A DNA stretch of 64,000 nt. It comes from Planctomycetota bacterium. Its GTDB lineage: Bacteria; Planctomycetota; UBA8108; UBA1146. How positions within the stretch are numbered: position 1 is the first letter of the stretch; every line of letters begins with the position of its first letter. The notes beneath the pieces are model-generated. The model did no database searches. It was not told the DNA's origin and saw nothing but the letters and a program-made list of their open reading frames with translations. This document shows positions 23,326-38,100 of the stretch, piece by piece. The position numbers and the translations under genes are program-made. The stretch covers positions 7,764-71,763 of the forward strand of contig JAQBGV010000193.1 of NCBI GenBank assembly GCA_032128395.1. The letters are read 5' to 3'.

Positions 23326-23409
23326 TCCCTGTCGTAGGATGGAGAGGAGACCGTAGAGGGATCACGCGGGGGCCGCAAGTGCCCTCACGAGGACGGCAAG
23401 GGGCTCGAC

Positions 23410-23772
23410 ATGCACTCGATCGGACACCTCATCTCGATCGCTCCTCTTCTCCTCGGGGCTCTGCTGCCCGCGCTCGGCTGCGGTGGATCTGCCTCCGCCG
23501 ACGCGCCCGATCTCCTCCCCGCGATGCTCGCCGAGATCCAGGCGATGCCGCGACATGACACGGAACCCGCCACCTTCGACCGCTACGTCCGGGAGTCGCA
23601 CGCCGCTGCTCTCGAACATGCCTTCGCCGAGGGTGCGCGCCCGGATGATCCCGCAGCGGGAGACGTGTACGCGGTCGAGATCTATCGCCTCATGGTCGAT
23701 CGAGCGTTCGCCGAGGGGCGCACCGATTTGGCGGACATCCTGACCAGAGCGTACTTGGCCGCGGTGAGGTAG
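23410..23772 (+). CDS. small lipoprotein, hypothetical
   Basis: MHSIGHLISIAPLLLGALLPALGCGG carries a lipobox LGCGG. Located upstream of the ECF sigma gene. Confidence 0.35.
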   Translation: MHSIGHLISIAPLLLGALLPALGCGGSASADAPDLLPAMLAEIQAMPRHDTEPATFDRYVRESHAAALEHAFAEGARPDDPAAGDVYAVEIYRLMVDRAFAEGRTDLADILTRAYLAAVR

Positions 23773-23952
23773 TCGTCTCGTCGGCTGGACGGTTCCATCG
23801 ACTCTGGCCGCCGGGACGGGCACCCCGGTGGCGAGCCAGTCCCCACGCATTTCACGGCCATCGTCTGCGCAACAGGTTCCACGCTCGCCTCTGGGTCGAG
23901 AATCTCAGAAGATCAGGACGGATCCTCCGAGCTCGCGCATCCAGGGAGAAGA

Positions 23953-24525
23953 ATGGCCAACGATCCCGATCGACGACTCTTCGAGGCGGCGGCGCGGGGG
24001 GATCCTGCGGCGCTCGAAGCTCTCTGGCGGCGCGAGCGCCGGCGGGTCGCGGCGGTGCTCTTGGCACATCGCCCCCGCGAGGAAGACCTGGAGGACCTCT
24101 TGCAGGAGGTCGGGATCATTTTCGTCGAGCGACTGCGCGAAGTGCGGGAACCCGATCGATTCCGCGCATGGCTGCGCATCGTCGCGCTGAATGTCGCGCG
24201 GGGAGCCGGGCGGCGAGTGAAGATCCAACGCGACCGGCGGCGCGGTCTCGAGGCTGCGATCGAGGTCCACGACCCGACCGGGGAGCGGAGCCTCGAACGC
24301 TCGGAAGCGCGCGACGAGCTGCGACAGGTCATCGCCTGGATCCGGGGGCTCTCGCCGAGCCTCGCCGAGCCGCTGCTCCTCCGCGCGGTGTGGGGAATGG
24401 CCCAGCGCGAGATCGCCGAGTGGCTCGGAGTCCCGGAAACGACGGTCGAGACCCGACTGGCCCGAGCACGCCGGGTACTCCGGCAAAGGATCGAGGAGGC
24501 CGATCGCCTCCGCCGCGCCGAGTGA
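23953..24525 (+). CDS. ECF RNA polymerase sigma factor (second copy)
   Basis: Region 2 (DLLQEVGIIFVERLREVREPDRFRAWLRIVALNVA) and region 4 (LSPSLAEPLLLRAVWGMAQREIAEWLGVPETTVETRLARARRVLRQ). Confidence 0.8.
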   Translation: MANDPDRRLFEAAARGDPAALEALWRRERRRVAAVLLAHRPREEDLEDLLQEVGIIFVERLREVREPDRFRAWLRIVALNVARGAGRRVKIQRDRRRGLEAAIEVHDPTGERSLERSEARDELRQVIAWIRGLSPSLAEPLLLRAVWGMAQREIAEWLGVPETTVETRLARARRVLRQRIEEADRLRRAE

Positions 24526-24536
24526 AGGAGACCTCG

Positions 24537-25142
24537 ATGCATGATAGTGAACTCTCGCGCGAAGATCTTCTGATCCACCGCGCCATCGATGGCTGCGTGG
24601 GGGTGGGCGACTGGGCGGAGCTCGAACTCCTCGGTCGTCGTGATCCTGCGGTGTGGAAGCGACTCGCCATCGCCATGCGGGGGGAGCTGACCCTGCGCCG
24701 AGCGGGCGCAGCGATCGATGCCTACCTGCCGTCGCTCCCGCTCGAGCGCCACGCCGTGGGCCGGCGCGCTCCGATCCTGATCGGGGGACTCGGCTGGGCT
24801 GCGGCTCTCGTCGTCTGCTTCCTCTGGCTCGGGGGACCGAGGCTCGGTCTCGGAAACTCCGAACACGGCAATCCTTCCTCCTCGCTCGGGGCGGCCGCCG
24901 CCTGGGCCCAGTACCTCGAGGCTGGAGATGCCGACGGTCGCTTCGTCCGCGAACTTCCGCCGGTGATGCTCGAAGCCACGCCGTCGGCCGATGGAGATAC
25001 CGTCGAGGTGCTCTTCGTCCGCCGAGCGATCGAGCGCACGACCGTGGGGGAGATCTTCGAAATCAATGAAGACGACGCTGGCCGGCTCTCCTCGCGGCCG
25101 GTCCCGGTGCTGAGACTCGTCTCGAGCGAACCGCTTCGATGA
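24537..25142 (+). CDS. putative anti-sigma factor (single TM)
   Basis: ATG 24537 lies 11 nt after the sigma stop, with an AAGGAG SD. TM segment ILIGGLGWAAALVVCFLWLGG and an extracytoplasmic C-terminal domain. Confidence 0.5.
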   Translation: MHDSELSREDLLIHRAIDGCVGVGDWAELELLGRRDPAVWKRLAIAMRGELTLRRAGAAIDAYLPSLPLERHAVGRRAPILIGGLGWAAALVVCFLWLGGPRLGLGNSEHGNPSSSLGAAAAWAQYLEAGDADGRFVRELPPVMLEATPSADGDTVEVLFVRRAIERTTVGEIFEINEDDAGRLSSRPVPVLRLVSSEPLR

Positions 25143-25211
25143 ATCGATGAGCGATCGGTGCCCGCGCTCCGGTCGCTCTCCGTGAGACTCTCCGTGGAAA
25201 GGAACCCTGCG

Positions 25212-27023
25212 ATGCGCCATCGCTTCCCCCTCTCACTCGTCGCCATCTCCCTCCTCCTCGTCGGCGCTACGGTCGCACAGGATGCGACACCGGCGGCCGC
25301 GCCCGCCGACCCGTTGCTCCGAGCCCTCCTCGGGGACTCCCCGGAGCAGGACAGCACGGCGCCCCGGCGGGCGACAGCTCCGATCCCGCCCGTGGCCGAT
25401 CCGCTGCTGCTCCCCCCCGCACCTCCGACGCCGGATGAGCCCCATGGACTGTGGCTCCTCAGCGATGGTCCCGCGACCGCTCCCACCATCCCGGACGAGC
25501 CCGCCCCTCCCCCGACCGGCGGTTGGCTCCTGACGCAGGACGGCACGGGGCGAGCGGTGTACGGGCAAGGCGGGACGACCGGGAATGGATTCAGTTTCTA
25601 CGACGGCATTGCGGACGCGCGCGACTACACCACCTGGAACACGAACTCGAACCAGGTCGATCTGCGCGTCAGCGTCGAGGGGGGTGGCATCACCGTTCAT
25701 CGCAATGGACGGCCCGTCCCCGATGATCAAATCGAACAGCACGGCTCGACTCTCCGCGTCCACGACGGAACCGGTCGTCTTCTCGTCACCATCGACGTTG
25801 CGGGCGATGGTCGGGTGACGATCCCCCCAGGGTGGAGTTTCCGCGGACCCGCGAACTGGGCCACCCAGGCCCAGAGCAAGAACGTGATCGGAATTCGCAC
25901 CGGATCGATCGAGGCAGCCCTCGCGCAGCACCTCGGTCTGGGGGACGGCGAGGGGATCCTGATCAGCGAAGCAGTCCCGGGTCATCCTGCCGCGGCGGCG
26001 GGACTGCGGGCGCACGACGTGATCGTCGCGATCGACGGACGACGCCCCGCTACCCTCGACCTCCTCAAGAACACCCTCCAGACGAAGGAAGCCGGAGCCC
26101 ACATCACGCTCACCGTGGTGCGCGCCGGGAACACCCTCGAGATTCGCTCCGAGATCACGCAGATCTCCGCTCCGGTCGGCGCGAACACGCTCCCGAGCGG
26201 CGCCTATGCGCTCTCACTCGGGGACTACGCGGGAGTGCTCACCGAAGAGGGCAACGTCCCCGCTCCAACCCTGCTCTGGCGGCGCAGTGGGAACGTGTTG
26301 CTCGGTTCGGAGGACGGGACGGCGGTGCTTCCGCCCTCGGCGAGAACGCTAGGATCGGCCCCGGCGCTCGGCCTCACCGGCGGCGGCGGCGCGGGAAGAG
26401 TGGTGGCCGTCCCCCGGCTGCCCGGGGGTTTGGCGGCGGGTCAGGTCGTGTCACCTGGGGCGAGCAACAATTTCGGCGGTCAGGTGGTCGGTCCGGATGG
26501 GAATCCGATCGCCGGGGCCCTGGTCGCTCCTGGCGCCGGCGGCGTGGTGGATCTCAGCCGGGGGCGGATCGCAGCTCCGGTGATCGGCGACGGATTCCGG
26601 CGCGCCGGGCCCGGAGGGGATCGCCTCGAGACGATCGAGAAGCGTCTCGAGAAACTCGAAGAGCTGCTGGAGAAGTTGCTCGAGCAGAAGAGCAAGGATC
26701 GGCAGCCTCGGGCGGAGGCGCCACGGCGCACCCAGAACATCGACGGCCGAGTCGTTGCGGTGATCGACGGTCTCGTGATCCTCTCGGTCGGTTCCGACGA
26801 CGGAGTTGCGAGCGGAGACGAATTCGTGGTCTATCGAGGTGAGCAGTTCATCGGGAAGGTACGGGTCAGCTCCGTGACTTCCGAGCAATCCGAAGCAACC
26901 GTTCTCTTCACACACAACAACTTGGGGATCGAACAGGGACAGAGCGCAACCACGCGGTTGAAGAGCCTGACCACCCCGTGGGAGGGGGACGACACGGTCG
27001 GCGCCACGGGCACCGGCGGCTAG
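25212..27023 (+). CDS. secreted PDZ-domain protein with coiled-coil segment
   Basis: Signal peptide MRHRFPLSLVAISLLLVGATVAQDA. PDZ-like region GIRTGSIEAALAQHLGLGDGEGILISEAVPGHPAAAAGLRAHDVIVAIDGRRP...LTVVRAGNTLEI. Coiled coil IEKRLEKLEELLEKLLEQK. Confidence 0.6.
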   Translation: MRHRFPLSLVAISLLLVGATVAQDATPAAAPADPLLRALLGDSPEQDSTAPRRATAPIPPVADPLLLPPAPPTPDEPHGLWLLSDGPATAPTIPDEPAPPPTGGWLLTQDGTGRAVYGQGGTTGNGFSFYDGIADARDYTTWNTNSNQVDLRVSVEGGGITVHRNGRPVPDDQIEQHGSTLRVHDGTGRLLVTIDVAGDGRVTIPPGWSFRGPANWATQAQSKNVIGIRTGSIEAALAQHLGLGDGEGILISEAVPGHPAAAAGLRAHDVIVAIDGRRPATLDLLKNTLQTKEAGAHITLTVVRAGNTLEIRSEITQISAPVGANTLPSGAYALSLGDYAGVLTEEGNVPAPTLLWRRSGNVLLGSEDGTAVLPPSARTLGSAPALGLTGGGGAGRVVAVPRLPGGLAAGQVVSPGASNNFGGQVVGPDGNPIAGALVAPGAGGVVDLSRGRIAAPVIGDGFRRAGPGGDRLETIEKRLEKLEELLEKLLEQKSKDRQPRAEAPRRTQNIDGRVVAVIDGLVILSVGSDDGVASGDEFVVYRGEQFIGKVRVSSVTSEQSEATVLFTHNNLGIEQGQSATTRLKSLTTPWEGDDTVGATGTGG

Positions 27024-27105
27024 CCGGAAGACTCCCGGAGAGAGCTGAGAGGATCGCCGCAGCCGATCCGGATGCGGCGGACCCCTCGTTCTTCGGTTCT
27101 CGCTC

Positions 27106-27174
27106 GAGGGACTGCCCCGGCGGTGGGGGGCAATCGACAACGCTCCTTCGCGAACGATCGTCGGGACACTCCCT
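27106..27174. repeat. palindromic intergenic element, family B copy
   Basis: GAGGGACTGCCCCGGCGG ...CAATCGAC... CGTCGGGACACTCCCTC. Homologous to the 11712-11797 element, including the internal CAATCGAC. Confidence 0.65.
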
Positions 27175-27334
27175 CAAGCCTCGACGGACCCTTGCCTCCG
27201 GGGCCCCTGCCAAGGAGAATCGGGTGCCCCAGCACAGCCCCGGAATCGGTACAGCCCCGGAAACGCACGATCCGCCCCCTGCGGTGCGGAGCTTCGGTGC
27301 ACCGGTTCTCCGGGAGGGCGGAAGGTGGCTCCCA

Positions 27335-28225
27335 GTGTCTCGTCGAATTCTCCCGATCCTCTCCATCGTCGCTCTGGTCGCCTCCTCCGCCTTCGCGGGC
27401 GAAGCCAACGACACTTTTTCGCGGGGGGACGCGAACCGGGATGGCGCACTGAACATCGCGGACGCCGTCTTCGTGCTCGACTATCTCTTCGGCGGAGCCG
27501 GCGCCGTTCTCCCCTGTCAGGACGCCGCCGATGCGAACGACGACGGGGCGATCGACATCGCGGACCCGATCCTCATGCTCGGCTATCTGTTCGTGCCGCC
27601 GCTGACGCCGCTCGTCGCACCGTTCCCGAACCCCGGTTCCGACCCGACCGCCGACGGCCTCACCTGCGCACCGATCGACTGCGCGAACGCCGCGGAGGTC
27701 GATGCTCTGCTCACGCTGCTCATCGGAACCTACCCTCTTCCCGGTGCGGTTCCACCGCAGACGATCACACAGTCCGGAGTGACGGTCGAGATCTTCGCCG
27801 CGGACGCGGTGGTGACCGTCGACAGCGTCAGCTACGACCCGATCACGGATACGTTCTCCGCATCGGGCACCGCAGGCGCCCCGGCGGTACCGACGACGAT
27901 CACCGCGTTCCTGATCAACGTCAGCTGCGATATCGCGGTGACCGGCAACTGGAGCATGACCGGTTCGCTCGACACCATCCCGATCAGCGCAGAGGCGTCC
28001 GAGGTCGTCGGCGTGACCCCGGGATCGGTGACATCATCGGTGACGAATACGAACATCGACTTTTCGGCGTGCGGGGGGATCGGCGTGATTCTTTCGATCG
28101 TCTCCGGTCTCTTCGATGCCGCGATCCAGGACGCGATCGATCAGATCGAGGTCCAGCTCGAGGCACAGATCACACAGGCCGTCGACGCAGTGATCGGGAC
28201 GACGCCGCTAATCGTCTGCGAGTAA
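27335..28225 (+). CDS. secreted protein with N-terminal dockerin-like module and Ser/Thr/Val-rich C-terminal domain
   Basis: GTG 27335 (SD GGAAGG). Signal peptide SRRILPILSIVALVASSAFA. Dockerin-like pair GDANRDGALNIADAVFVLDYLF / DANDDGAIDIADPILMLGYLF followed by PPLTPLVAPFPNPG. Confidence 0.6.
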   Translation: MSRRILPILSIVALVASSAFAGEANDTFSRGDANRDGALNIADAVFVLDYLFGGAGAVLPCQDAADANDDGAIDIADPILMLGYLFVPPLTPLVAPFPNPGSDPTADGLTCAPIDCANAAEVDALLTLLIGTYPLPGAVPPQTITQSGVTVEIFAADAVVTVDSVSYDPITDTFSASGTAGAPAVPTTITAFLINVSCDIAVTGNWSMTGSLDTIPISAEASEVVGVTPGSVTSSVTNTNIDFSACGGIGVILSIVSGLFDAAIQDAIDQIEVQLEAQITQAVDAVIGTTPLIVCE

Positions 28226-28266
28226 ACCTGGCCCGGGCTCCGATGAGGCACCGCCTGCGGCGTCGC

Positions 28267-28324
28267 GGGGTGCCGGCCGATCCTCGACGGGGCGAAGGCC
28301 CCGCCTGCGGTCGGTCGGCACCCC
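28267..28324. terminator. long GC hairpin between convergent genes (putative bidirectional terminator)
   Basis: GGGGTGCCGGCCGA ... TCGGTCGGCACCCC (14-bp arms, one mismatch) between the + gene ending at 28225 and the - gene ending at 28372. No U-tract. Confidence 0.3.
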
Positions 28325-28371
28325 GCGCCTTGCATTCGATACCTCCTCGAAGCCCTCTACGTGCATCGTTT

Positions 28372-28920
28372 TCAGAAGAGTGGCGATCGGGCGTATTCTT
28401 CCCAGATCGGGAATGCTTGGTCCCGGTCGGAGACGACCGGGACGAGATTCTCGGGCCAGGGGATACCCACCGTGTCCCATCGGATGCCCCGGTCCGACTC
28501 GGGCACGTACACCGAAGTGGTCTGATAGTGGAGCGTCGCGGAGTCCGTGGTGACCAGGAACCCGTGGGCGATCCCGCGGGGGATGTAGATCACGTGAGCG
28601 CTCTCGGCGTCGAGTTCGAGGCACTCGTACGCGCCGAAGGTCGTCGATTCCGCACGCAGGTCCACCAGGACGTCGAGCACCCGTCCCTCTGAACAATGGA
28701 CGAGTTTCGCATGGTCGTGCGGAGGCGCCTGATAGTGAAGTCCTCGCAAGACCCCCTGCCCCGACTTCGAGTAGTACGTCTCGACGAAGTCGGTCTCGAG
28801 GCCGAGCTTGCGCAGCGACGGCGCGTGAAACACCTTCACGAAACGCCCTCGTGCATCGTCGAAGACTCGAGGGACGAGCCGGCGGCACCCGGCGATCGTC
28901 AACTCACTAGCCTCGAACAT
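28372..28920 (-). CDS. dTDP/CDP-4-dehydro-6-deoxyhexose 3,5-epimerase (RmlC fold; AscE-like)
   Basis: Cupin RmlC motifs (SKSGQGVLRGLHYQ, HAKLVHCSEGRVLDVLVDLR, YIPRGIAHGF). Confidence 0.8.
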   Translation of the reverse strand: MFEASELTIAGCRRLVPRVFDDARGRFVKVFHAPSLRKLGLETDFVETYYSKSGQGVLRGLHYQAPPHDHAKLVHCSEGRVLDVLVDLRAESTTFGAYECLELDAESAHVIYIPRGIAHGFLVTTDSATLHYQTTSVYVPESDRGIRWDTVGIPWPENLVPVVSDRDQAFPIWEEYARSPLF

Positions 28921-29806
28921 CGTGCTCGATCCATCTCCGAATTCCGTCGCGCAGAGTGACCTCGGGCTTCCACCCCGGAATCGTCGCCCCTCCCCGCCAA
29001 GGGACCATCACCTCGCGCTTTCGGTAGGGACGCTCCCCGAAGCGGAGGTCGAGCGCGACTCCGGACTCCTTCTCGAAGATCCGGACCAGTTCTCGCAGGG
29101 TCGGGGTCTCTCCGGAGCGCACTGCGAATTCCTCGGAGGATCCGGCGGGAAGCGTGGTCACCCGCTCCGCGGCGATCGCGTAGGCGCGGACCACGTCGTC
29201 GACGTGGACGAGATCGAGTCGCTGCTCCCCTGGAGAAAAATCGATGCTCCCCCCCTCCCCCTGGGTCAGGTGGAGGAGGAGGGGCATCAGCTTCGGTCGG
29301 TGGTCCCCTTCGCCGTAGGTATCGAAGAGCTTGAGATGGATCACCCGGAGCGGCGCGGTGCGAAGGTGGAACACGAGCAAGGTCTCGAACGCCTGCTTCG
29401 TCGCCGCATAGAGGGAGACGGGATCGTAGGCGGAGTCTCTGAAGTGCTGCCAGGCGGTTCCGGTGTGGATGAGGTGGTGGACGTCGTTCTGGAGCATCGC
29501 CTCGACCAGCTCGGCGCTGAAGCGCAGATTGCTGTCGATGAGAGGGCCGACATCGCGAGCGGTGTGTTCGGCGACGAAGAGCGCAGCGAGGTGGAAGACC
29601 ACATCGGGGCGAGCGCTCTCGACGATCTCGATCAAACTCTCCACTCCGCCCACTTGGCAGTGGACCGTCGCGGGTTCGAGAGCCAGAACACGGTCGGGAT
29701 CGGACTCGGGGCGGGTGATGACGTGCACTTCGTGACCCGCGGCGAGGAGGTGACGCACGAGGTGGCCGCCGACGAATCCGGTTCCCCCGGTGACAAGAGC
29801 TCTCAA
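28907..29806 (-). CDS. NAD(P)-dependent SDR epimerase/reductase (AscF / CDP-dideoxyhexose synthase-like)
   Basis: Rossmann motif [13 protein letters not shown] and catalytic YAATK. TTG start at 29806 overlaps the ddhC stop (TTGA), with a GGAGGAG SD. Confidence 0.7.
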
Positions 29807-31179
29807 GGGCTCCTCCCCCCCGCTTTCTCGAGCGCGAATCCCTGGATGACATCCACCACGTACGAGCGCGCGCTCTCGGTCAATCCCGGATAGACCCCGA
29901 TCCACACCGCTCGTTCCATGACCCTATCGGTCCGGGCGAGAGAGCCGACGACCCGAAACGGCGGGGTGCTGCGGTGCGCTACGCGATCTGCGAAGAGCTG
30001 ACTGAGCGCCGGCTGACGGATCAGGTTTCCTGCGAACAGCATTCGGGTCTGGATCTTCCGCTTCTCGAGGTGAGCGACCAACTCCCCTCGATCGAAAGGT
30101 GCTTCCTCGCGAACCATCATCAGGAATCCGAACCAACTCGGGTCGCTGCCCGGGGTCGGCTCGGGGAGGACGAGGAACTCCTCGAGATCCGAGAGAGCCT
30201 CGCGGTAGAAGGCCCAGTTCTTTCGACGTGCCTCGCAGAATCCATCGAGCTTTTCGAGCTGGCGCAGGCCGACCGCGGCCTGCATGTCGGTCATTTTCAG
30301 GTTGAACCCGAGGTGCGAGTACACGTACTTGTGGTCGTACCCCGCGGGCAGTTCTCCGAGCTTCCACTGGAAGCGCTTGCCGCAGGTGTTGTCGACCCCG
30401 GGGTCGCACCAGCAATCGCGTCCCCAGTCCCTCACACTCTCGATCACTCGGTTCAGTTCGTCGTTGTTGGTGAGGACGGCGCCTCCCTCACCGGTGGTCA
30501 TGTGATGCGGCGGGTAGAAGCTCAGGGTCGCCATGTCGCCGAAGGTCCCGGTTTTCTTCCCTTCGTAGAGCGATCCCGCGGCGTCGCAGTTGTCCTCGAT
30601 CAGCCAGAGATCGTGCTTTCGGCAGAACTCGACCACGCCGCCGAGGTCGAACGGGTTCCCGAGGGTGTGCGCGATGATCACGGCGCGGGTCCGGTGGCTG
30701 CGAGCTGCTCGGAGCAGGGAGACGTCGATGTTGTAGGTCGGCAGGTTCACGTCGACGAACACGGGGACGAGGCCGAGCTGGATCGCCGGGGTGACCGTGG
30801 TCGGGAAACCGGCCGCCACCGTGATCACCTCGTCGCCGGGGCGGGCTCTGCGATCTCCCAGAGACGGACTCATCAGAGCGGCGGTCGCGACCAGGTTCGC
30901 GCTCGAGCCGCTGTTCACCAACCGCGCGTGCTTGAGCCCGTACCACTTTGCGAGCGCCCGCTCGAGCCTGCGGTGCCACCGCCCTGCGGTGAGCCAAAAC
31001 TCGAGGGAGCTCTCGACCAGCGCGGTCATCTCCTTGCCGTCGTACACGCGCCCCGCGTAAGGGACCGGCGTCCTCCCCGGCACGAATGTCGATTCGCGAT
31101 TGCGCAGACCCGCGAGTCGCTCGACTCGCTCGAGAATTTCATCGATGAGCTGCTGCTCGCTGACGGGATCAGGTTCCAC
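29803..31179 (-). CDS. ddhC: CDP-6-deoxy-D-xylo-4-hexulose-3-dehydrase (E1; DdhC/RfbH)
   Basis: DegT/DnrJ fold. The active-site motif [14 protein letters not shown] has His where aminotransferases have Lys, which is the E1 hallmark. A [2Fe-2S] motif [12 protein letters not shown] (CxC-x7-C) is present. Confidence 0.85.
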
Positions 31180-32311
31180 GGTACCCCCCGGAGTTCTGGT
31201 ACTCGTGGATCTGGCGCCCCGAGAGTGCCCTCATGGCATCGGGTTCCGCCCCATCCGCGTGCGCGCGATGCCACTCGACGACGCGAGAAAGGGTCTGAAA
31301 GAAGTCCCACCGCGGCGCCCAGCCGAGACGAGCGGTCGCCTTGTCGATACTGAGCCTCAGGATCCCCGCTTCCTCCACGGCGCTCTCGACCGGCGTGTGT
31401 TCCCACCCCCCGGATCCCCAGAACTCGATCAGGGTCTCGACGACGTCGCGCACGGTCCGAACCTCCGACGCGGCCGGCCCGAAGTTCCATCCGTCGCACG
31501 CCTCGGCGCGCGAGATTCCTCCGCGACCGCAGAGATGAGCGCCGAGGGAGAGATAGCCGCCGAGCGGCTCGAGGACATGTTGCCACGGGCGAATCGCGCC
31601 CGGGTTCCGAACCGCGACCGACTCGCCGGCCACGAGGGCGCGGACCATGTCGGGGACGATCCGGTCCTCCGCCCAATCTCCCCCGCCGAGGACGTTCCCG
31701 GCGCGGGCGGAAGCGATGGCGATGCCGTGATCTTCGATTCGATCGATGGGGAAGAAGCTCCGGCGATAGCTCGAGACGACCAGCTCGGTCGCGCCCTTGC
31801 TCATCGAGTAGATGTCGTGGCCTCCCATCGGATCGCTCTCGCGATAGCCGTGCCACCACTCGCGGTTCTCGTAGCACTTGTCGCTCGAGACGACGACCAC
31901 CGAACAGGGGCGCTCCGCGAGGCGTACTGCCTCGAGTACGTGTGCGGTTCCCAGGACGTTGGTCCGGATCGTCTCGATCGGCTCTCGGTAGCTCCGGCGC
32001 ACCAGCGCCTGCGCGGCGAGATGAAAGACGAACTCGGGGCGGTGTTCATCGATGACCGCACGAACCACGTCGAGATCGGTGATGTCCCCGATCGTGTGGG
32101 TAACTGTACGCTCGATCCCGGCGACCTCGAAGAGGGACGGGGAAGATTTGGGAGGGAGCGCGAGCCCGATCACCTCGGCGCCGAGGGAATCGAGCCACAT
32201 CGCGAGCCACGAGCCCTTGAACCCGGTGTGTCCGGTGATGAGGACGCGTCGTCCCGAGTAGACGTCCTCGAGAGAGCTCGACCTCGTGTGGATCACGGCC
32301 ACGCCTTCCAT
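31169..32311 (-). CDS. ddhB: CDP-glucose 4,6-dehydratase (DdhB/RfbG)
   Basis: [15 protein letters not shown], catalytic YSMSK and a conserved C-terminus. The start is set at MEGVAVIH; the track N-terminus is Arg-rich read-through. Confidence 0.85.
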
Positions 32312-33093
32312 GGCGCATCCCCAGAGGCCCAGAGATCGTTCAGCATCTTGTACTCGCGGTAGGTGTCCATCGGGAGCCAGAAGCCGTCGTGTCGAAACGC
32401 GGAGAGCTCGCCATCGGCGGTCAGCCGGCGGAGCGGCTCCTGTTCGAGGATCAGTTCCGGTCCTCCCTCGAGGTACGGCCAAATGCGCTTCGCGTCGAAG
32501 ACGAAGAACCCGCCGTTGATCAGCCCAGCGGTGGTCTGCGGTTTCTCGTTGAACTCGCGGACGCGGGAGCCCTCCGTCTCCATCTCGCCGAAGCGTCCCG
32601 GGGGATGGACCGCGGTGACGGTCGCGATGCGCCCTTCTCGGCGGTGGTGCTCGACGAGGCCCTCGATGTCGATGTTCGCGAGGCCGTCGCCGTAGGTCAG
32701 ACAGAAGAGGTCATCGTTTTCCACGTACTGGCGGATTGCGGCGACCCGCCCGCCGGTCATCGTCTGTTCTCCGGTGTTGGCGAGGGTCACCCGCCACTCT
32801 TCGAGACCCTCGCCGATCCCTTGTCCCGCGCCATGGATCTCGACCGCTCCCTCTCGCCCGAGCTGCACGGTGATGTCGGAACTCTTCGCCCGGTAGTTCA
32901 GGAAGTACTCCTTGATCAACCACCCCTTGTGGCCGAGGCAGAGCACGAAATCATCGAGGCCGTGCGCGGCGTAGAGCTTCATGATGTGCCAGAGGATCGG
33001 GGCACCGCCGACCGGCAGCATCGGCTTCGGAAGCTCCTCCGAAGCCGCGCGGATCCGCGTCCCCTGACCTCCACACAGAATCACGACCTTCAT
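32293..33093 (-). CDS. ddhA: glucose-1-phosphate cytidylyltransferase (DdhA/RfbF)
   Basis: MKVVILCGGQGTRIR...LPKPMLPVGGAPILWHIM and the C-terminal [12 protein letters not shown] signature of RfbF. Confidence 0.85.
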   Translation of the reverse strand: MKVVILCGGQGTRIRAASEELPKPMLPVGGAPILWHIMKLYAAHGLDDFVLCLGHKGWLIKEYFLNYRAKSSDITVQLGREGAVEIHGAGQGIGEGLEEWRVTLANTGEQTMTGGRVAAIRQYVENDDLFCLTYGDGLANIDIEGLVEHHRREGRIATVTAVHPPGRFGEMETEGSRVREFNEKPQTTAGLINGGFFVFDAKRIWPYLEGGPELILEQEPLRRLTADGELSAFRHDGFWLPMDTYREYKMLNDLWASGDAPWKAWP

Positions 33094-33184
33094 GCGAGCC
33101 TCCGACCTGGTGGTGCCGATGCGCGCCATGGTACTGTAGCCCTGTCGGGGAACACCAGTCAGAGCGGGCGGAGACGGCGAGATC

Positions 33185-34153
33185 ATGGATTCCGTACCGA
33201 ATTTCTCCGTCGGGATCCCGACCTACAACCACGGGAAATACGTCGGCGCGGCGATCGAGTCCCTCCTCGACCAGACGGTCGCCCCCCTCGAGCTGGTGGT
33301 GTGCAACAACCACTCGACCGACGATACCGCCGAGGTTCTCGCACGGTTCGGGGACCGGATCCGCGTGATCAGCCCTCCCGAGCATCTTTCGATGATGGCG
33401 AACTGGAACCACCTCGTCGGGCAGCTCCGGGGGGAATGGGTCGCGCTCCTCTCGAGCGATGACCTGGCGCTCCCTCCCTTCGTCGAGGCGCTCTGGGAAG
33501 GGACCCAGCTCGCCGAGGACGCGGTGCTCGTGCGCGCCGACGTCGACTTCGTCGACGGCGAGGGACAGGATCTCGGGACGCGTCGCCGGCGGGTCCCGGG
33601 GGTCACGTCGCCGCCGAAAAACTTCCTCGAGCGCCTCTACGGCCCGAAGGTGAACTTCAACGCGGTCGCGTTCCGGAAGGACGCCTGGGAGAAGAGCGGT
33701 GGGTTTCCCGAGTCGTGCCGCCTCGCGGGCGATTGGGCGTTCTGGCTCGAGCTCACCCCGTTCGGCAGCTTCACCACCGTCTCCGTCCCGGTCTCCCGTT
33801 ATCGAAAGGGACACCGGAGTCGCGAGGAGGAACACGCTCGCCTGGTCCTCTGGGCGGAGGACTACCGTGCGATCTACCGCGAGTTGATGCCGCGCATCGC
33901 GAAGGAGCTCGGCGTCTCCCCCGCGCTGGTGCGCCACGCGATGCGATCTCGGTGCACCAACTTCCTCTCGCGACTGAGTCGGAGTTTGCCGAACGAGAGT
34001 CGCGAGGAGGTCGCCCGGGAGCTCGCCGACTGGGCGAAGGACTGTGACGTCGAGCGAGCTCTCGAGCGGTTCCGGGCGGGAGAGCGATTCGGGAAGAGAC
34101 GGTTCCGCCGGCTGCGCCGGTGGGCCGCCACCCTCGGACTTTCGAACGGGTGA
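33185..34153 (+). CDS. family-2 glycosyltransferase
   Basis: FSVGIPTYNHGKYVGAAIESLLDQT... and a DxD-like SSDD. Divergent from ddhA. Confidence 0.75.
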   Translation: MDSVPNFSVGIPTYNHGKYVGAAIESLLDQTVAPLELVVCNNHSTDDTAEVLARFGDRIRVISPPEHLSMMANWNHLVGQLRGEWVALLSSDDLALPPFVEALWEGTQLAEDAVLVRADVDFVDGEGQDLGTRRRRVPGVTSPPKNFLERLYGPKVNFNAVAFRKDAWEKSGGFPESCRLAGDWAFWLELTPFGSFTTVSVPVSRYRKGHRSREEEHARLVLWAEDYRAIYRELMPRIAKELGVSPALVRHAMRSRCTNFLSRLSRSLPNESREEVARELADWAKDCDVERALERFRAGERFGKRRFRRLRRWAATLGLSNG

Positions 34154-34247
34154 TGCGCGCGAGTGTGTGAACCCATCGCAGTGCCGGACCCTTATCATTT
34201 TTCGTCGGTGATCGGGACGCCCGCTCCGCAACTTCGTGAATGCGACT

Positions 34248-35126
34248 CTACTCCGCAATGCCGTGGCGCACCCGGAAGCCGGTCTCGTAGAAGCCGTAGC
34301 CGGGCGAGAATCGTTGGCGTCGCGCCGCGCGCAGATCGGCGGGCCCGCCGACCCACGAGCCTCCGCGGAAGCTCTGGTAGTACCGCCGCCGCCAACTCGC
34401 GCGTTCGGACTCCGGGCTCACCGGCGCCGCTTCGTTGAAGCTCTCGTAACTGGGAGTCCAGTCCCCGAGGGTGAGTTCCCAGACGTTGCCGAGCACATCG
34501 CAGAGCCCGAATCCGTTCGGCGCCCACTCCCCCACCGGATGCGTCCGACCGTCCGAGTTCTCCCGATACCACGCGATCGTGCCGAGCGGTCCGTAGCGCG
34601 GTCCCGGGTTCCCCGCGCGGCACGCCCATTCCCATTCGACCTCGGTCGGCAGCGTGAGGCCGGTCTTCTCGAGGAAGGACCGGATCTGCGGGACCGTGAT
34701 GTTCTCCGCCGGGTGGTCGGCTCCCTCGGTATCGAAGGGGTGCTCGCCCATCGTGCGGACCCACTGCGCCTGCGTCACCTCGAAACGCCCGAGGTAGAAC
34801 GGCTCCGTCACCTGCGCCGTGTGTGCAGGTTGTTCCTCCGGCCGCGCGTCTTCCTCCCCCTCCGGTGCTCCGCGCTGAAACTCGCCGGGGGGGATCAGGA
34901 TCAACTCGATGCCGGTCGCGCGGTCGCGGACGTGCCACGGCAGCCCGGTCGCGATGATTCGTGCGCGCAGCTCTGCATCGCCGACGATCGCCTTCTCGGG
35001 AACTGCACCGATCGTCTCGGCCCAGGTCAGTGGTGGGATCGAGTCCAATTCGGTATCCGACACGACCGGCGCCGCACACCCACAAGAGAGCGCCGCGATG
35101 CTCAGCAACCACCGGGAGTGGTGCAT
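34248..35126 (-). CDS. FGE/SUMF1-domain (formylglycine-generating-enzyme-like) lipoprotein
   Basis: MHHSRWLLSIAALSCGC lipobox. FGE-sulfatase domain signatures (GEWAPNGFGLCDVLGNVWEL...YRVRGGSW). Confidence 0.7.
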   Translation of the reverse strand: MHHSRWLLSIAALSCGCAAPVVSDTELDSIPPLTWAETIGAVPEKAIVGDAELRARIIATGLPWHVRDRATGIELILIPPGEFQRGAPEGEEDARPEEQPAHTAQVTEPFYLGRFEVTQAQWVRTMGEHPFDTEGADHPAENITVPQIRSFLEKTGLTLPTEVEWEWACRAGNPGPRYGPLGTIAWYRENSDGRTHPVGEWAPNGFGLCDVLGNVWELTLGDWTPSYESFNEAAPVSPESERASWRRRYYQSFRGGSWVGGPADLRAARRQRFSPGYGFYETGFRVRHGIAE

Positions 35127-35134
35127 TCCGCTCC

Positions 35135-38100
35135 TCACACCCCGAGCAGATCGAGCGCGCTCTCGAGGCCATCGATCTGCGTCGCTTTCGGCGGCCGCCC
35201 GCCGATCTCCCCGCCGGTGAGCTCGACCACCTTCCAACCGCGCCCTCGGAGCGCCTGGATGATCGCGGCGCGATCTCCGGCGAAGATCAGCCAGTTGTCC
35301 TCGGAATCGAACTTCTTCACCCCCCAGCTCCCGAGGAGGAGCCGCAGCCGCTGGAGCCGGAACAGCGTCTCGGTCTCGGCGGGGAGCTTGCCGAAGCGGT
35401 CGACCAGGTCGGCCGCAATCTCGTCGAGTTCGCTCGCGGTGAGCGCGGTCGCGATCGCCCGGTACGCACGCAACCTCCCGCGGGTGTCCCCGATGTATTC
35501 CTCGGGGATGCGGGTGTGTCCTTCGAGGCCGATCTCGATGTCGGGGGGTTCTTGCCATGCGGTGCCGCGCATGTCGGCGACCGCGCGCTCGAGCAGGCGA
35601 CAGTAGAGGTCGTAGCCGACCGCCGCGATGTGCCCTGACTGCTCCTTGCCGAGGATGTTCCCCGCGCCGCGGATCTCGAGGTCGCGCATTGCGATCTGGA
35701 AGCCGCTGCCGAGCGCGGTCAGTTCTTCGAGCGCCTGCAGTCGGTGACGCGCCTCTTGCTTGATCGGACGGTCGTCGGGGAGAAGCAGGAAGCAGTACGC
35801 CTTGTGGGTGCCGCGCCCGACCCGCCCGCGCAGCTGGTGCAGCTCCGCGAGACCGAACCGGTCTGCGCGATCGATCACCATGGTGTTCGCGCTCGGGATG
35901 TCGAGGCCGCTCTCGATGATCGTCGTCGAGACGAGCACATCGACTTCCTTGGCGAGGAATCGATTCATCCGCGCCTCGAGCTCGTGCTCGTTCATCTGCC
36001 CGTGCACCTCGATCATCCGCGCCTCCGGAACCAACCTCTCGAGCGCCTCGCGCTTCACCCGCAGCGACTTCACCCGGTTGTGGAGGTAGAAGACCTGCCC
36101 GTCGCGGTTGAGTTCACGCAGCATGATCTGCCGAAAGCGTTCCTCATCGAAGTGACACACCTCGGTGTGGACCGGATTTCGCCCCTGGGGTGGATCGGCG
36201 AGGCTCGAAATGTCTTTCACGCCGACGAGCGACATGTGCAGCGTCCGCGGGATCGGCGTCGCGGTGAGGGTCAGCACGTCGGCGAGGCGTCGCAGATGCT
36301 TGAGCCGCTCCTTGTGCGCCACCCCGAAGCGCTGCTCCTCGTCGATGATGATCAGCCCGAGGTTCTGGAAGTGCACGTCGGCGGAGAGGAGTCGGTGGGT
36401 GCCGATCAGGATGTCGATTTCGCCCGCGGCGGCGCGTTTCAGGATATCGGTCTGTTCGCGCCGGCTGCGCAGGCGGCTGATCGCCTCGACCCGCACTGGA
36501 AACTCCGCCATGCGATCGCGAAACGTCAATCGGTGCTGCTCGGCGAGAATCGTCGTCGGGACCAGGATCGCCACCTGTCTCCCCGCGCGCGTCGATTTGA
36601 ACGCGGCGCGCATCGCGAGCTCGGTCTTGCCGAAGCCGACGTCTCCGCAGATCAGGCGATCCATCGGCTTCGGCGACTCCATGTCGCGGCGGATCGCCTC
36701 CATGCTCGTCAGCTGATCGTCGGTCTCCTGGAAGGGGAACGCCGCTTCGAATTCGTGCTGCCAGTGGTCATCGGTGGGGAACGCCATCCCCTCCCGCTCG
36801 GTGCGCAGGGCCTGCATCTCGAGGAGATCCGCGGCGAGGTCGTGCAGCCCCTCCGCGACCTTCGCCTTCTTCTTGCCCCAAGCGGTCGATCCGACCCGGT
36901 CGAGCCGGACGTGACGACCCTTGCTCCCGACGAACTTCTGGACCAGGTCGATCCGTTCGACCGGGACGAGGATCTGGACCCCTTCGGAGTACTCGAGGAT
37001 GAGGAAGTCTCCCGGACGGCGACCTTGGGTCTGGTGTCGGATTCCTCGGAAGCGCGCGATGCCGTGAGAAACGTGGACGACGTGCGCTCCCTCCTCGAGC
37101 TCGAGGAAGCTGTCGACCGCCCGCCCCTCCGCGCGTTGTTTCGCGCGCCTGGACATCGCGCGGCTGCGGCCGAGCGCGGCGGAGCCGGAGAGAAAGATTC
37201 CCCCGGTCGGTTCGAGCCACCGAAAACCGCGCGAGAGATCTCCGAGGGTCGGGCGTGCTCCGGAGCCGACCCCCGCCCCCGCGTCGGCGAGCACTTCGAG
37301 AAAGCGCTCGACCTCCGCCTCCTGGCGGAAGAAGACCCGCAGCTCGACCCCCTTCCGCGTTTCCGCCACGATCGCGGGGACCGTGTTCTCGAGCGAACCG
37401 ATGAACGCTTCGGTGGAGCCGGCGGGGAGCAGAACCGCGTTGCGCCCCTTCTCCGGTGAGAGGGGATCGAGGGCGAGATGGGTGAACTTCCCCGATCGCG
37501 CCCAGAACTCATCGCCGATCGATCGCTCCTGCTTCGGCGCCCACTGTCCGATCAGAGTCCGACTGCGCTCGTCGAGCTGGCCCGGGTTCGGGAGGACGAG
37601 AACCAGGTCTTCGGGAAGGCCGTCGAAGAGCAGCAGCTCCTCCCCGGTGAATCCACGGATGAAGTAGTCGCGTTTCGGGAGGAGTGTGAGGACGAGCATC
37701 GGCACCTCGTCCCCCGAGCGTTGGTCTTTTGTGGAGACGGAACGGATGGTGTCGATCTCGTTGCCGAAGAAGTCGACCCGATAGGGGTGGGAGCCCTCTC
37801 GTGGGTAGATGTCGAAGATCCCACCTCGAACCGAGAAGTCCCCGGGGCGCGCGACCTGTGGGAAGCGCCGATACCCCGCGTCGACGAGGGCGCGGGCGAG
37901 GGTCTCGGGGGGGAACCGGTCTCCGGTGCGGAGCAGGATCCGTCGGTCGTCGGTGGCGTCCGGTCGCGAGATCGGCTGCAAGATCGCCTGCACCGGCGCG
38001 ACCGCGGCCCGGACCGTACCGGCGCGCAACCCTTCCGAGCACTCGGTCCGCTCGCGGAAGATGTCGGGATCGGGCTCCGATTCCGCCTCGAAGAGAGACT

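Follow-up and report, generated by a model that had tools for sequence, protein, structure and literature searches.

The DNA analyzed here is a 64-kb stretch of contig JAQBGV010000193.1 from a Planctomycetota bacterium (hereafter the window, G+C about 67%). It contains a five-gene operon on the minus strand at 28372–33093, with a divergent family-2 glycosyltransferase (GT2) gene next to it. These six genes probably make a cytidine diphosphate (CDP)-linked 3,6-dideoxy-L-hexose for a surface glycan. The key enzyme, the [2Fe-2S]-dependent dehydrase E1 encoded by ddhC (rfbH), would take its electrons from a donor that is not clustered with it and is probably a housekeeping one, and the whole set behaves like a mobile module. 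The original prediction for this DNA, made from the sequence alone, had described the operon as ddhA, ddhB, ddhC, a short-chain dehydrogenase/reductase (SDR) gene, and an RmlC-like epimerase gene. Profile scores confirmed all five identities, and the positions, all on the minus strand, matched exactly (Table 1).

The identity of E1 was assessed by profile, structure-based, and residue comparisons. DdhC matched the NF011936 RfbH equivalog with 695 bits (cut-off 423) and the DegT/DnrJ/EryC1 fold family PF01041 with 296 bits. The Yersinia pseudotuberculosis E1 (PDB 3bcx) was matched over its full length (residues 7–448) with 512 bits and 54% identity, compared to 180 bits for ColD (2gms) and 186 bits for the actinomycete NDP-hexose 3-dehydratase 9wvy. 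The four [2Fe-2S] ligands, Cys198, Cys256, Cys258, and Cys266, are spaced exactly as C-x57-C-x-C-x7-C, the motif described for E1 (PMC8987622) and also found in the Yersinia enzyme. His225 replaces the Schiff-base Lys of aminotransferases and is the equivalent of Yersinia His220, aligning with the position substituted in structure 3bb8 (H220K). Furthermore, His225 and the four Cys residues are invariant in 88/88 aligned RfbH sequences, namely that of the window, 86 from loci elsewhere, and that of Salmonella. The CDP-sugar context of E1 is given by the cytidylyltransferase and CDP-glucose 4,6-dehydratase genes directly upstream in the same operon. Because DdhC scores 512 bits against the Yersinia E1 versus 180 bits against ColD and keeps the catalytic His and all four Cys residues, it is, as judged from its sequence, a genuine Fe-S/His E1 enzyme and neither ColD-like nor an aminotransferase. 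The His-for-Lys substitution and CxC-x7-C site quoted in the original prediction are therefore present with exact ligand spacing, and the bona fide E1 that it proposed held up; grouping with ColD or aminotransferases, named beforehand as the contrary outcome, was not seen.

In the proposed pathway, DdhA would convert glucose-1-phosphate to CDP-glucose, and DdhB would convert this to CDP-4-keto-6-deoxyglucose. DdhC, using pyridoxamine 5'-phosphate (PMP), His225, and the [2Fe-2S] cluster on Cys198/256/258/266, would then remove the 3-OH and give CDP-4-keto-3,6-dideoxyglucose if reduced. The RmlC-fold enzyme is predicted to invert C-5, the SDR to reduce C-4 to CDP-ascarylose or its C-4 epimer, and the GT2 to move the sugar to a surface glycan. 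The two electrons for E1 most likely derive from a reductase system whose genes lie elsewhere; by analogy with SpnQ, a housekeeping ferredoxin or flavodoxin and its NAD(P)H reductase are the probable source. Four elements of this scheme are inferred, namely the sequence in which the late steps run, the product stereochemistry, the acceptor, and which donor supplies the electrons.

The late steps are indicated by the two downstream genes. The closest solved structure to the RmlC-fold enzyme is the CDP-sugar epimerase WbcA (5BUV), and the window enzyme keeps residues that align with the His, Lys, Tyr, and Asp of the RmlC 1DZR catalytic set. Only C-5 is left to epimerize because C-3 is deoxygenated, and the enzyme is presumed to be a 5-epimerase acting on CDP-3,6-dideoxy-4-hexulose. 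The SDR carries the motifs TGGTGFVGG (GxxGxxG) and YAATK (YxxxK). Across the whole protein, it shares 43% identity with the SDR of a Sphingomonas module, compared to 24% with the Salmonella abequose synthase, and it scores 404–411 bits against its orthologue in locus L003 (Ga0131077_10000166), both of which are described below. Its presumed role is that of an NAD(P)H-dependent C-4 ketoreductase of CDP-3,6-dideoxy-4-hexulose. This pair of SDR and RmlC-fold genes recurs in Magnetococcales, Omnitrophota, and Burkholderiales genomes and in metagenome loci. Reportedly, Thorson in 1994 assigned AscE and AscF the roles of 5-epimerase and 4-reductase. Candidates for both functions are present in the window, as the ascarylose-like gene set of the original prediction implied, and the gene content would match the ascarylose route, with a 5-epimerase followed by a 4-reductase. 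The best inference for the product is CDP-ascarylose or its C-4 epimer. The GT2 has two orthologues in L003 (416 and 421 bits) at the same divergent position and is a candidate transferase for the dideoxyhexose.

To define the missing reductase, E3 (DdhD/AscD/RfbI) was taken as a protein with the domains Fer2, FAD_binding_6, and NAD_binding_1, and a genuine Salmonella protein (L084:5127–6101) in which Pfam confirmed all three served as the query. The Pfam scan found none of these domains in the approximately 44 called genes of the window, where the sole flavoprotein is an NDH-2-type enzyme 25 kb from the cassette. Unfiltered phmmer with the Salmonella E3 gave no match at E ≤ 10 among six-frame open reading frames (ORFs) of at least 60 aa, and the positive control, L084, scored 754 bits. 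Plant-type, adrenodoxin-type, and 4Fe-4S cysteine motifs were likewise absent from window ORFs of at least 40 aa. The absence of an E3 gene from the 64 kb, as originally predicted, was thus borne out by the Pfam scan, by phmmer, and by the ferredoxin motif search.

For comparison, we took a further 166 RfbH loci, drawn from more than 20 phyla and covering 2.2 Mb of flanking DNA with up to 10 kb on each side. The survey comprised 86 loci from genomes or long contigs with 1.4 Mb of flanking sequence, 60 of which had at least 5 kb on both sides, and 80 loci from metagenomes with 0.8 Mb. In these neighborhoods, regular expressions for E3 motifs matched nothing convincing and gave way to phmmer with the Salmonella E3. 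No E3 homologue was found in any of the 166 loci. The sole reductase-like neighbor was L046:8027–8725 in an Acidaminobacteraceae metagenome-assembled genome (MAG), a weak E3 match directly 3' of ddhC. It is ferredoxin-NADP reductase (FNR)-like, with NAD_binding_1 and FAD_binding_8 and without Fer2, and might serve that lineage as another reductase for E1. Fer2/FNR genes were absent from the Pfam-annotated neighborhoods of the five closest relatives (L001 from Anaeromyxobacter, L003, L087, L088, and L089). The genes ddhA, ddhB, and ddhC were almost always adjacent in the surveyed loci.

Linked E3 genes were recovered from Proteobacteria only, in two Salmonella records and on a Sphingomonas hengshuiensis plasmid, so the search method is able to detect them. 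In Yersinia and Salmonella clusters, ddhD is always present, at the cluster head (PMC5399914). The state without E3 therefore appears to be the norm for RfbH loci outside some Proteobacteria. Since none of the 166 comparable loci carries E3, its absence from the window locus is ordinary, and the significance attached to it in the original prediction is not supported; SpnQ is moreover a precedent for an E1 homologue that works with no dedicated E3 (PMC8987622). No earlier discussion of CDP clusters lacking E3 was found in the literature searched.

To look for other redox partners, every ORF lying up to 6 kb from ddhC was included in a clustering of 85 loci. The families that came up repeatedly were SDRs, ddhA, thiamine diphosphate (ThDP) enzymes, GtrB-like GT2 proteins, NeuB-like proteins, transketolase halves, methyltransferases, and GtrA. 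A clustered alternative partner was rejected, as no recurrent ferredoxin or flavodoxin occurred among these ORFs. Two further features were set aside. DdhC carries an 11-residue insertion relative to the Yersinia and Salmonella E1 (residues ~396–406; 29962–29994, minus strand), which was considered as a docking site for another reductase. It is confined to the nearest subclade (7/88 sequences) and does not track the absence of E3. The other was a 155-aa ORF abutting the Anaeromyxobacter ddhC, for which neither a Pfam match nor a window counterpart was found. An ORF of this kind, 155–167 aa long, without a Pfam match, and ending exactly at the ddhC start, is conserved between L001:9533–10000 (Anaeromyxobacter dehalogenans) and L002:434–937 (a Logan contig).

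RfbH itself is widespread. At least 8000 database proteins were homologous at E < 1e-30, and in each of two collection scans RfbH was confirmed in 597 of the 600 matched stretches, counts that are to be read as at least these values. The best 80 species-representative genomes with RfbH span more than 20 phyla, and the hosts include Planctomycetota (L011, L031, L055, L082), Verrucomicrobiia, Omnitrophota, Firmicutes, Actinomycetota, and Cyanobacteria. The nearest named relatives of the Mfd protein encoded in the window are all Planctomycetota MAGs (60–65% identity), which agrees with the Planctomycetes–Verrucomicrobia–Chlamydiae (PVC)-like host of the original prediction. The view that such a host makes the cluster notable did not survive, as RfbH genes are already frequent in PVC genomes; RfbH loci were seen in several genomes of Planctomycetota, Verrucomicrobiia, and Omnitrophota, in Gram-positives, and in an archaeon. 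An RfbH with 57% identity and all Fe-S ligands was observed in L019 (a Methanobacteriaceae archaeon MAG) and in L022 (Candidatus Peregrinibacteria, of the candidate phyla radiation, CPR), provided that both bins are free of contamination.

Two kinds of gene next to RfbH were observed apart from the window type. An acetolactate-synthase-like ThDP enzyme lies just 3' in 28 of the 85 RfbH loci (e.g., L066:4799–6616, L088:12336–14045, and L085:11358–13111). Other loci of the L004–L083 set have split transketolase genes, often together with a GtrB-like GT2 and GtrA. These ThDP/transketolase loci look like widespread yersiniose-type modules for branched-chain dideoxy sugars, also without E3.

The window cassette was compared to known systems. 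The Yersinia asc and Salmonella/Yersinia ddhDABC clusters share ddhA, ddhB, and ddhC with it, in the same order. In the Yersinia asc and enteric ddh clusters, the downstream genes set the final sugar, and their counterparts in the window are the RmlC-fold epimerase and the SDR; ascE and ascF are named as genes of the Asc module (PMC5399914). However, the enteric clusters are headed by ddhD, encoding E3, whereas the window cassette lacks ddhD. It also differs in having no wzx and no larger O-antigen cluster, in placing the SDR gene before the epimerase gene, and in its uncultured planctomycete host. The module of the Sphingomonas hengshuiensis plasmid NZ_CP010837.1 is arranged as E3-like, rfbF, rfbG, rfbH, rmlC-like, SDR, wzx, and GT-A. 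Its five biosynthetic proteins are co-orthologous to those of the window, with 49, 53, 55, 46, and 43% identity, and both modules have a glycosyltransferase. In contrast to the window, it has an E3-like Fer2-FNR gene (37% identical to the Salmonella E3) and wzx.

Locus L003, a metagenome contig, has the same layout. Here GT2 diverges from ddhA-ddhB-ddhC-SDR-RmlC, and the surrounding 10 kb contain no E3. The DdhC of L003 shares 74% identity with that of the window, and each of the six window proteins has a clear orthologue there (516 bits for ddhA). L003 differs in that its GT2 gene is doubled in tandem, its G+C is 74% compared to 67%, and its flanking genes are unrelated. The module in L003 therefore belongs to a different organism from that of the window, as its G+C and flanking genes show.

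SpnQ and ColD are the relevant comparisons for electron supply. SpnQ is a PMP/[2Fe-2S] E1 homologue with a catalytic His and no dedicated E3, and its electrons come from general pairs of ferredoxin and ferredoxin reductase or of flavodoxin and flavodoxin reductase (PMC8987622). The window DdhC resembles SpnQ in being an E1 homologue with Fe-S ligands whose gene cluster lacks E3. SpnQ acts as a dTDP-4-keto-2,6-dideoxyglucose 3-dehydrase in the forosamine pathway for spinosyn, in an actinomycete natural-product cluster, whereas the window E1 stands in a CDP-glucose context. The Pfam scan found no 2,3-dehydratase, polyketide synthase (PKS), or nonribosomal peptide synthetase (NRPS) gene in the window. 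ColD, the GDP-4-keto-6-deoxymannose 3-dehydratase of colitose synthesis, shares the fold, the His-for-Lys substitution, and C-3 deoxygenation and needs no E3 (PMC8987622). However, ColD has no Fe-S cluster and its PMP is regenerated from glutamate, whereas the window DdhC keeps four Cys ligands in a CDP context.

The genomic setting was examined for signs of mobility. The cassette lies in an 11.8-kb variable accessory segment between the Mfd gene and two amidohydrolase genes, which contains the ddh cassette, the GT2 gene, and genes for an extracytoplasmic function (ECF) sigma factor, a PDZ protein, a dockerin-like protein, and a formylglycine-generating enzyme (FGE)-sulfatase. Two loci whose Mfd is 78% identical, L090 and L091, keep the order of Mfd, two amidohydrolases, and a 1454-aa protein. 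They have approximately 2.5 kb between Mfd and the amidohydrolases and none of the genes of the variable segment. The window DdhC is 73% identical to an Anaeromyxobacter protein, compared to 56–59% identity to other Planctomycetota RfbH sequences. Since the cassette is absent from syntenic relatives, has the same layout in the unrelated L003, and has its nearest DdhC in Anaeromyxobacter, these comparisons indicate an accessory, horizontally exchanged module. As a separate observation, L090 and L091 have 53.5% G+C compared to about 67% in the window (16350–38644 compared), a large shift for such protein identity.

With moderate confidence, and by analogy with SpnQ, we favor a non-clustered and probably housekeeping electron donor for E1. 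Several points weigh against this reading of the cassette. E1 with E3 is the sole partnership characterized for a CDP-type E1, and it is specific in the published biochemistry (PMC8987622; PMC5399914). In the literature examined, no CDP-type E1 is known to work with general reductases. The surveyed loci do not form a random sample, being those with the greatest similarity to the window DdhC within the first 600 pattern matches. Neither the stereochemical outcome of the SDR nor the regiochemistry of the epimerase can be read from sequence. Finally, the Pfam scan of the window revealed neither wzx, wzy, or wzz nor a second glycosyltransferase gene near the cassette that would point to the acceptor. 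The first of these points also favors an alternative that is doubtful but substantial, in which a dedicated E3, orthologous to DdhD/AscD, is encoded elsewhere in the genome, in the other 28 kb of the 91.8-kb source contig or on a different contig, and the system is a classical E1/E3 pair with an unlinked partner. The evidence for its absence covers the window. The orthologous Sphingomonas module does carry an E3, and in the plasmid collection E3-like Fer2-FNR proteins with 32–40% identity were widespread and often unlinked to rfbH. Against this, 0/166 loci from more than 20 phyla have E3 nearby, though ddhA, ddhB, and ddhC almost always stay together; if a specific E3 were strictly required, linkage would be expected in at least some of the surveyed lineages. 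Concerning the plasmid matches, those in Cupriavidus necator NZ_CP017759.1 and Burkholderia AP022311.1, for example, suggest that the name E3 is seemingly applied to general Fer2-FNR reductases.

It is very unlikely that DdhC needs no external reductant at all, either through ColD-like hydrolytic release or as a C-4 aminotransferase making another sugar such as a 4-amino-4,6-dideoxyhexose. SpnQ does show aminotransferase activity without a reductase, and the His-for-Lys substitution is common to ColD (PMC8987622). However, the four exactly spaced Cys ligands are invariant in the homologues while ColD has no cluster, the scores clearly separate E1 from ColD, and neither wild-type E1 nor ColD had transaminase activity under the SpnQ conditions (PMC8987622). 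In addition, the downstream pair of epimerase and ketoreductase needs a 4-keto product. The least probable reading is that the cassette is a recently acquired, non-functional remnant that lost E3 or never received it, with no dideoxyhexose made in the host. Its position in a segment missing from syntenic relatives would fit this, as would the lack of wzx, wzy, or other polysaccharide genes nearby. However, all six frames (the five genes and GT2) are intact and translationally coupled in the operon, with host-like third-position G+C (GC3, 0.77–0.87), and the catalytic residues of the epimerase, E1, and SDR are intact. The same layout without E3 is moreover conserved in L003 in a different genomic context, which argues for selection on the E3-less unit.

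The window cassette, read as an operon served by an unclustered donor, would equip a planctomycete with a complete and mobile CDP-3,6-dideoxyhexose module and predicts a rare dideoxy sugar on a surface glycan. The question of the electron donor of E1 is a family-wide property and is not peculiar to this locus. As the Fe-S ligands are kept in all 88 RfbH sequences and E3 is found in none of the 166 loci, the question applies to most organisms that encode E1. It is possible, though a little short of probable, that the enteric E1/E3 pair is the exception and that most bacterial and archaeal RfbH-type Fe-S 3-dehydrases function without a partner of the E3 family, using housekeeping or novel donors. 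If true, 3,6-dideoxy and related branched sugars would be far wider in distribution than the O-antigen literature suggests, and the reductive half of the pathway would be uncharacterized outside Enterobacterales.

Table 1. Positions of the dideoxyhexose cassette, its parts, and flanking features in the window.
Feature	Position	Strand	Basis or remark
ddhA/rfbF, glucose-1-phosphate cytidylyltransferase, 266 aa, operon gene 1	32293–33093	-	TIGR02623, full length, 332 bits (cut-off 300); Pfam NTP_transferase
ddhB/rfbG, CDP-glucose 4,6-dehydratase, ~383 aa	31169 to ~32320	-	TIGR02622, 459 bits (cut-off 278)
ddhC/rfbH, E1, PMP- and [2Fe-2S]-dependent CDP-4-keto-6-deoxyglucose 3-dehydrase, 458 aa	29803–31179	-	NF011936 RfbH equivalog
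E1 catalytic segment	30382–30588	-	Cys198, His225, Cys256, Cys258, Cys266 in translation
Extended SDR, 299 aa	28907–29806	-	Pfam Epimerase, 128 bits; no NCBIfam equivalog at cut-off
RmlC-fold epimerase, 182 aa, last operon gene	28372–28920	-	TIGR01221, 170 bits (cut-off 155); Pfam dTDP_sugar_isom, 187 bits
Family-2 glycosyltransferase (GT2), 322 aa, divergent	33185–34153	+	Pfam Glycos_transf_2, 76 bits
Intergenic region ddhA/GT2, 91 bp, divergent	33094–33184	.	Position only
Variable accessory segment with cassette, 11.8 kb	23326–35137	.	Between Mfd and two amidohydrolase genes
FGE-sulfatase-domain gene flanking cassette	34248–35558	-	Within variable segment
415-aa protein with dockerin/EF-hand-like repeats, flanking cassette	26978–28222	+	Within variable segment

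Every gene junction in the cassette overlaps, and the five genes therefore form a translationally coupled operon. The ddhB gene probably starts at the ATG at 32320, overlapping the end of ddhA. The GTG start of ddhC gives an 11-nt overlap with the end of ddhB and is backed by a database protein of 458 aa that is 100% identical (P0001). The SDR start was reassigned to a TTG at 29806 that shares bases with the stop codon of ddhC (cTTGA), and the epimerase ATG sits 14 nt within the SDR gene. The five frames show the high third-position G+C of real genes in the window. Both divergent promoters are presumed to lie in the gap between ddhA and GT2; no match to a sigma-70 consensus promoter was found in 27800–34600, and no convincing terminator in the cassette.

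Elsewhere in the window, no tRNA genes were found. The sole Rfam match, far from the cassette, was a thiamine pyrophosphate (TPP) riboswitch (RF00059, 2828–2929, minus strand, 64 bits with a gathering threshold of 54.3) just upstream of thiC. Because the riboswitch overlaps the 5' part of the thiC ORF (823–2934), this ORF is over-extended at its 5' end, and the true start lies downstream of the riboswitch.

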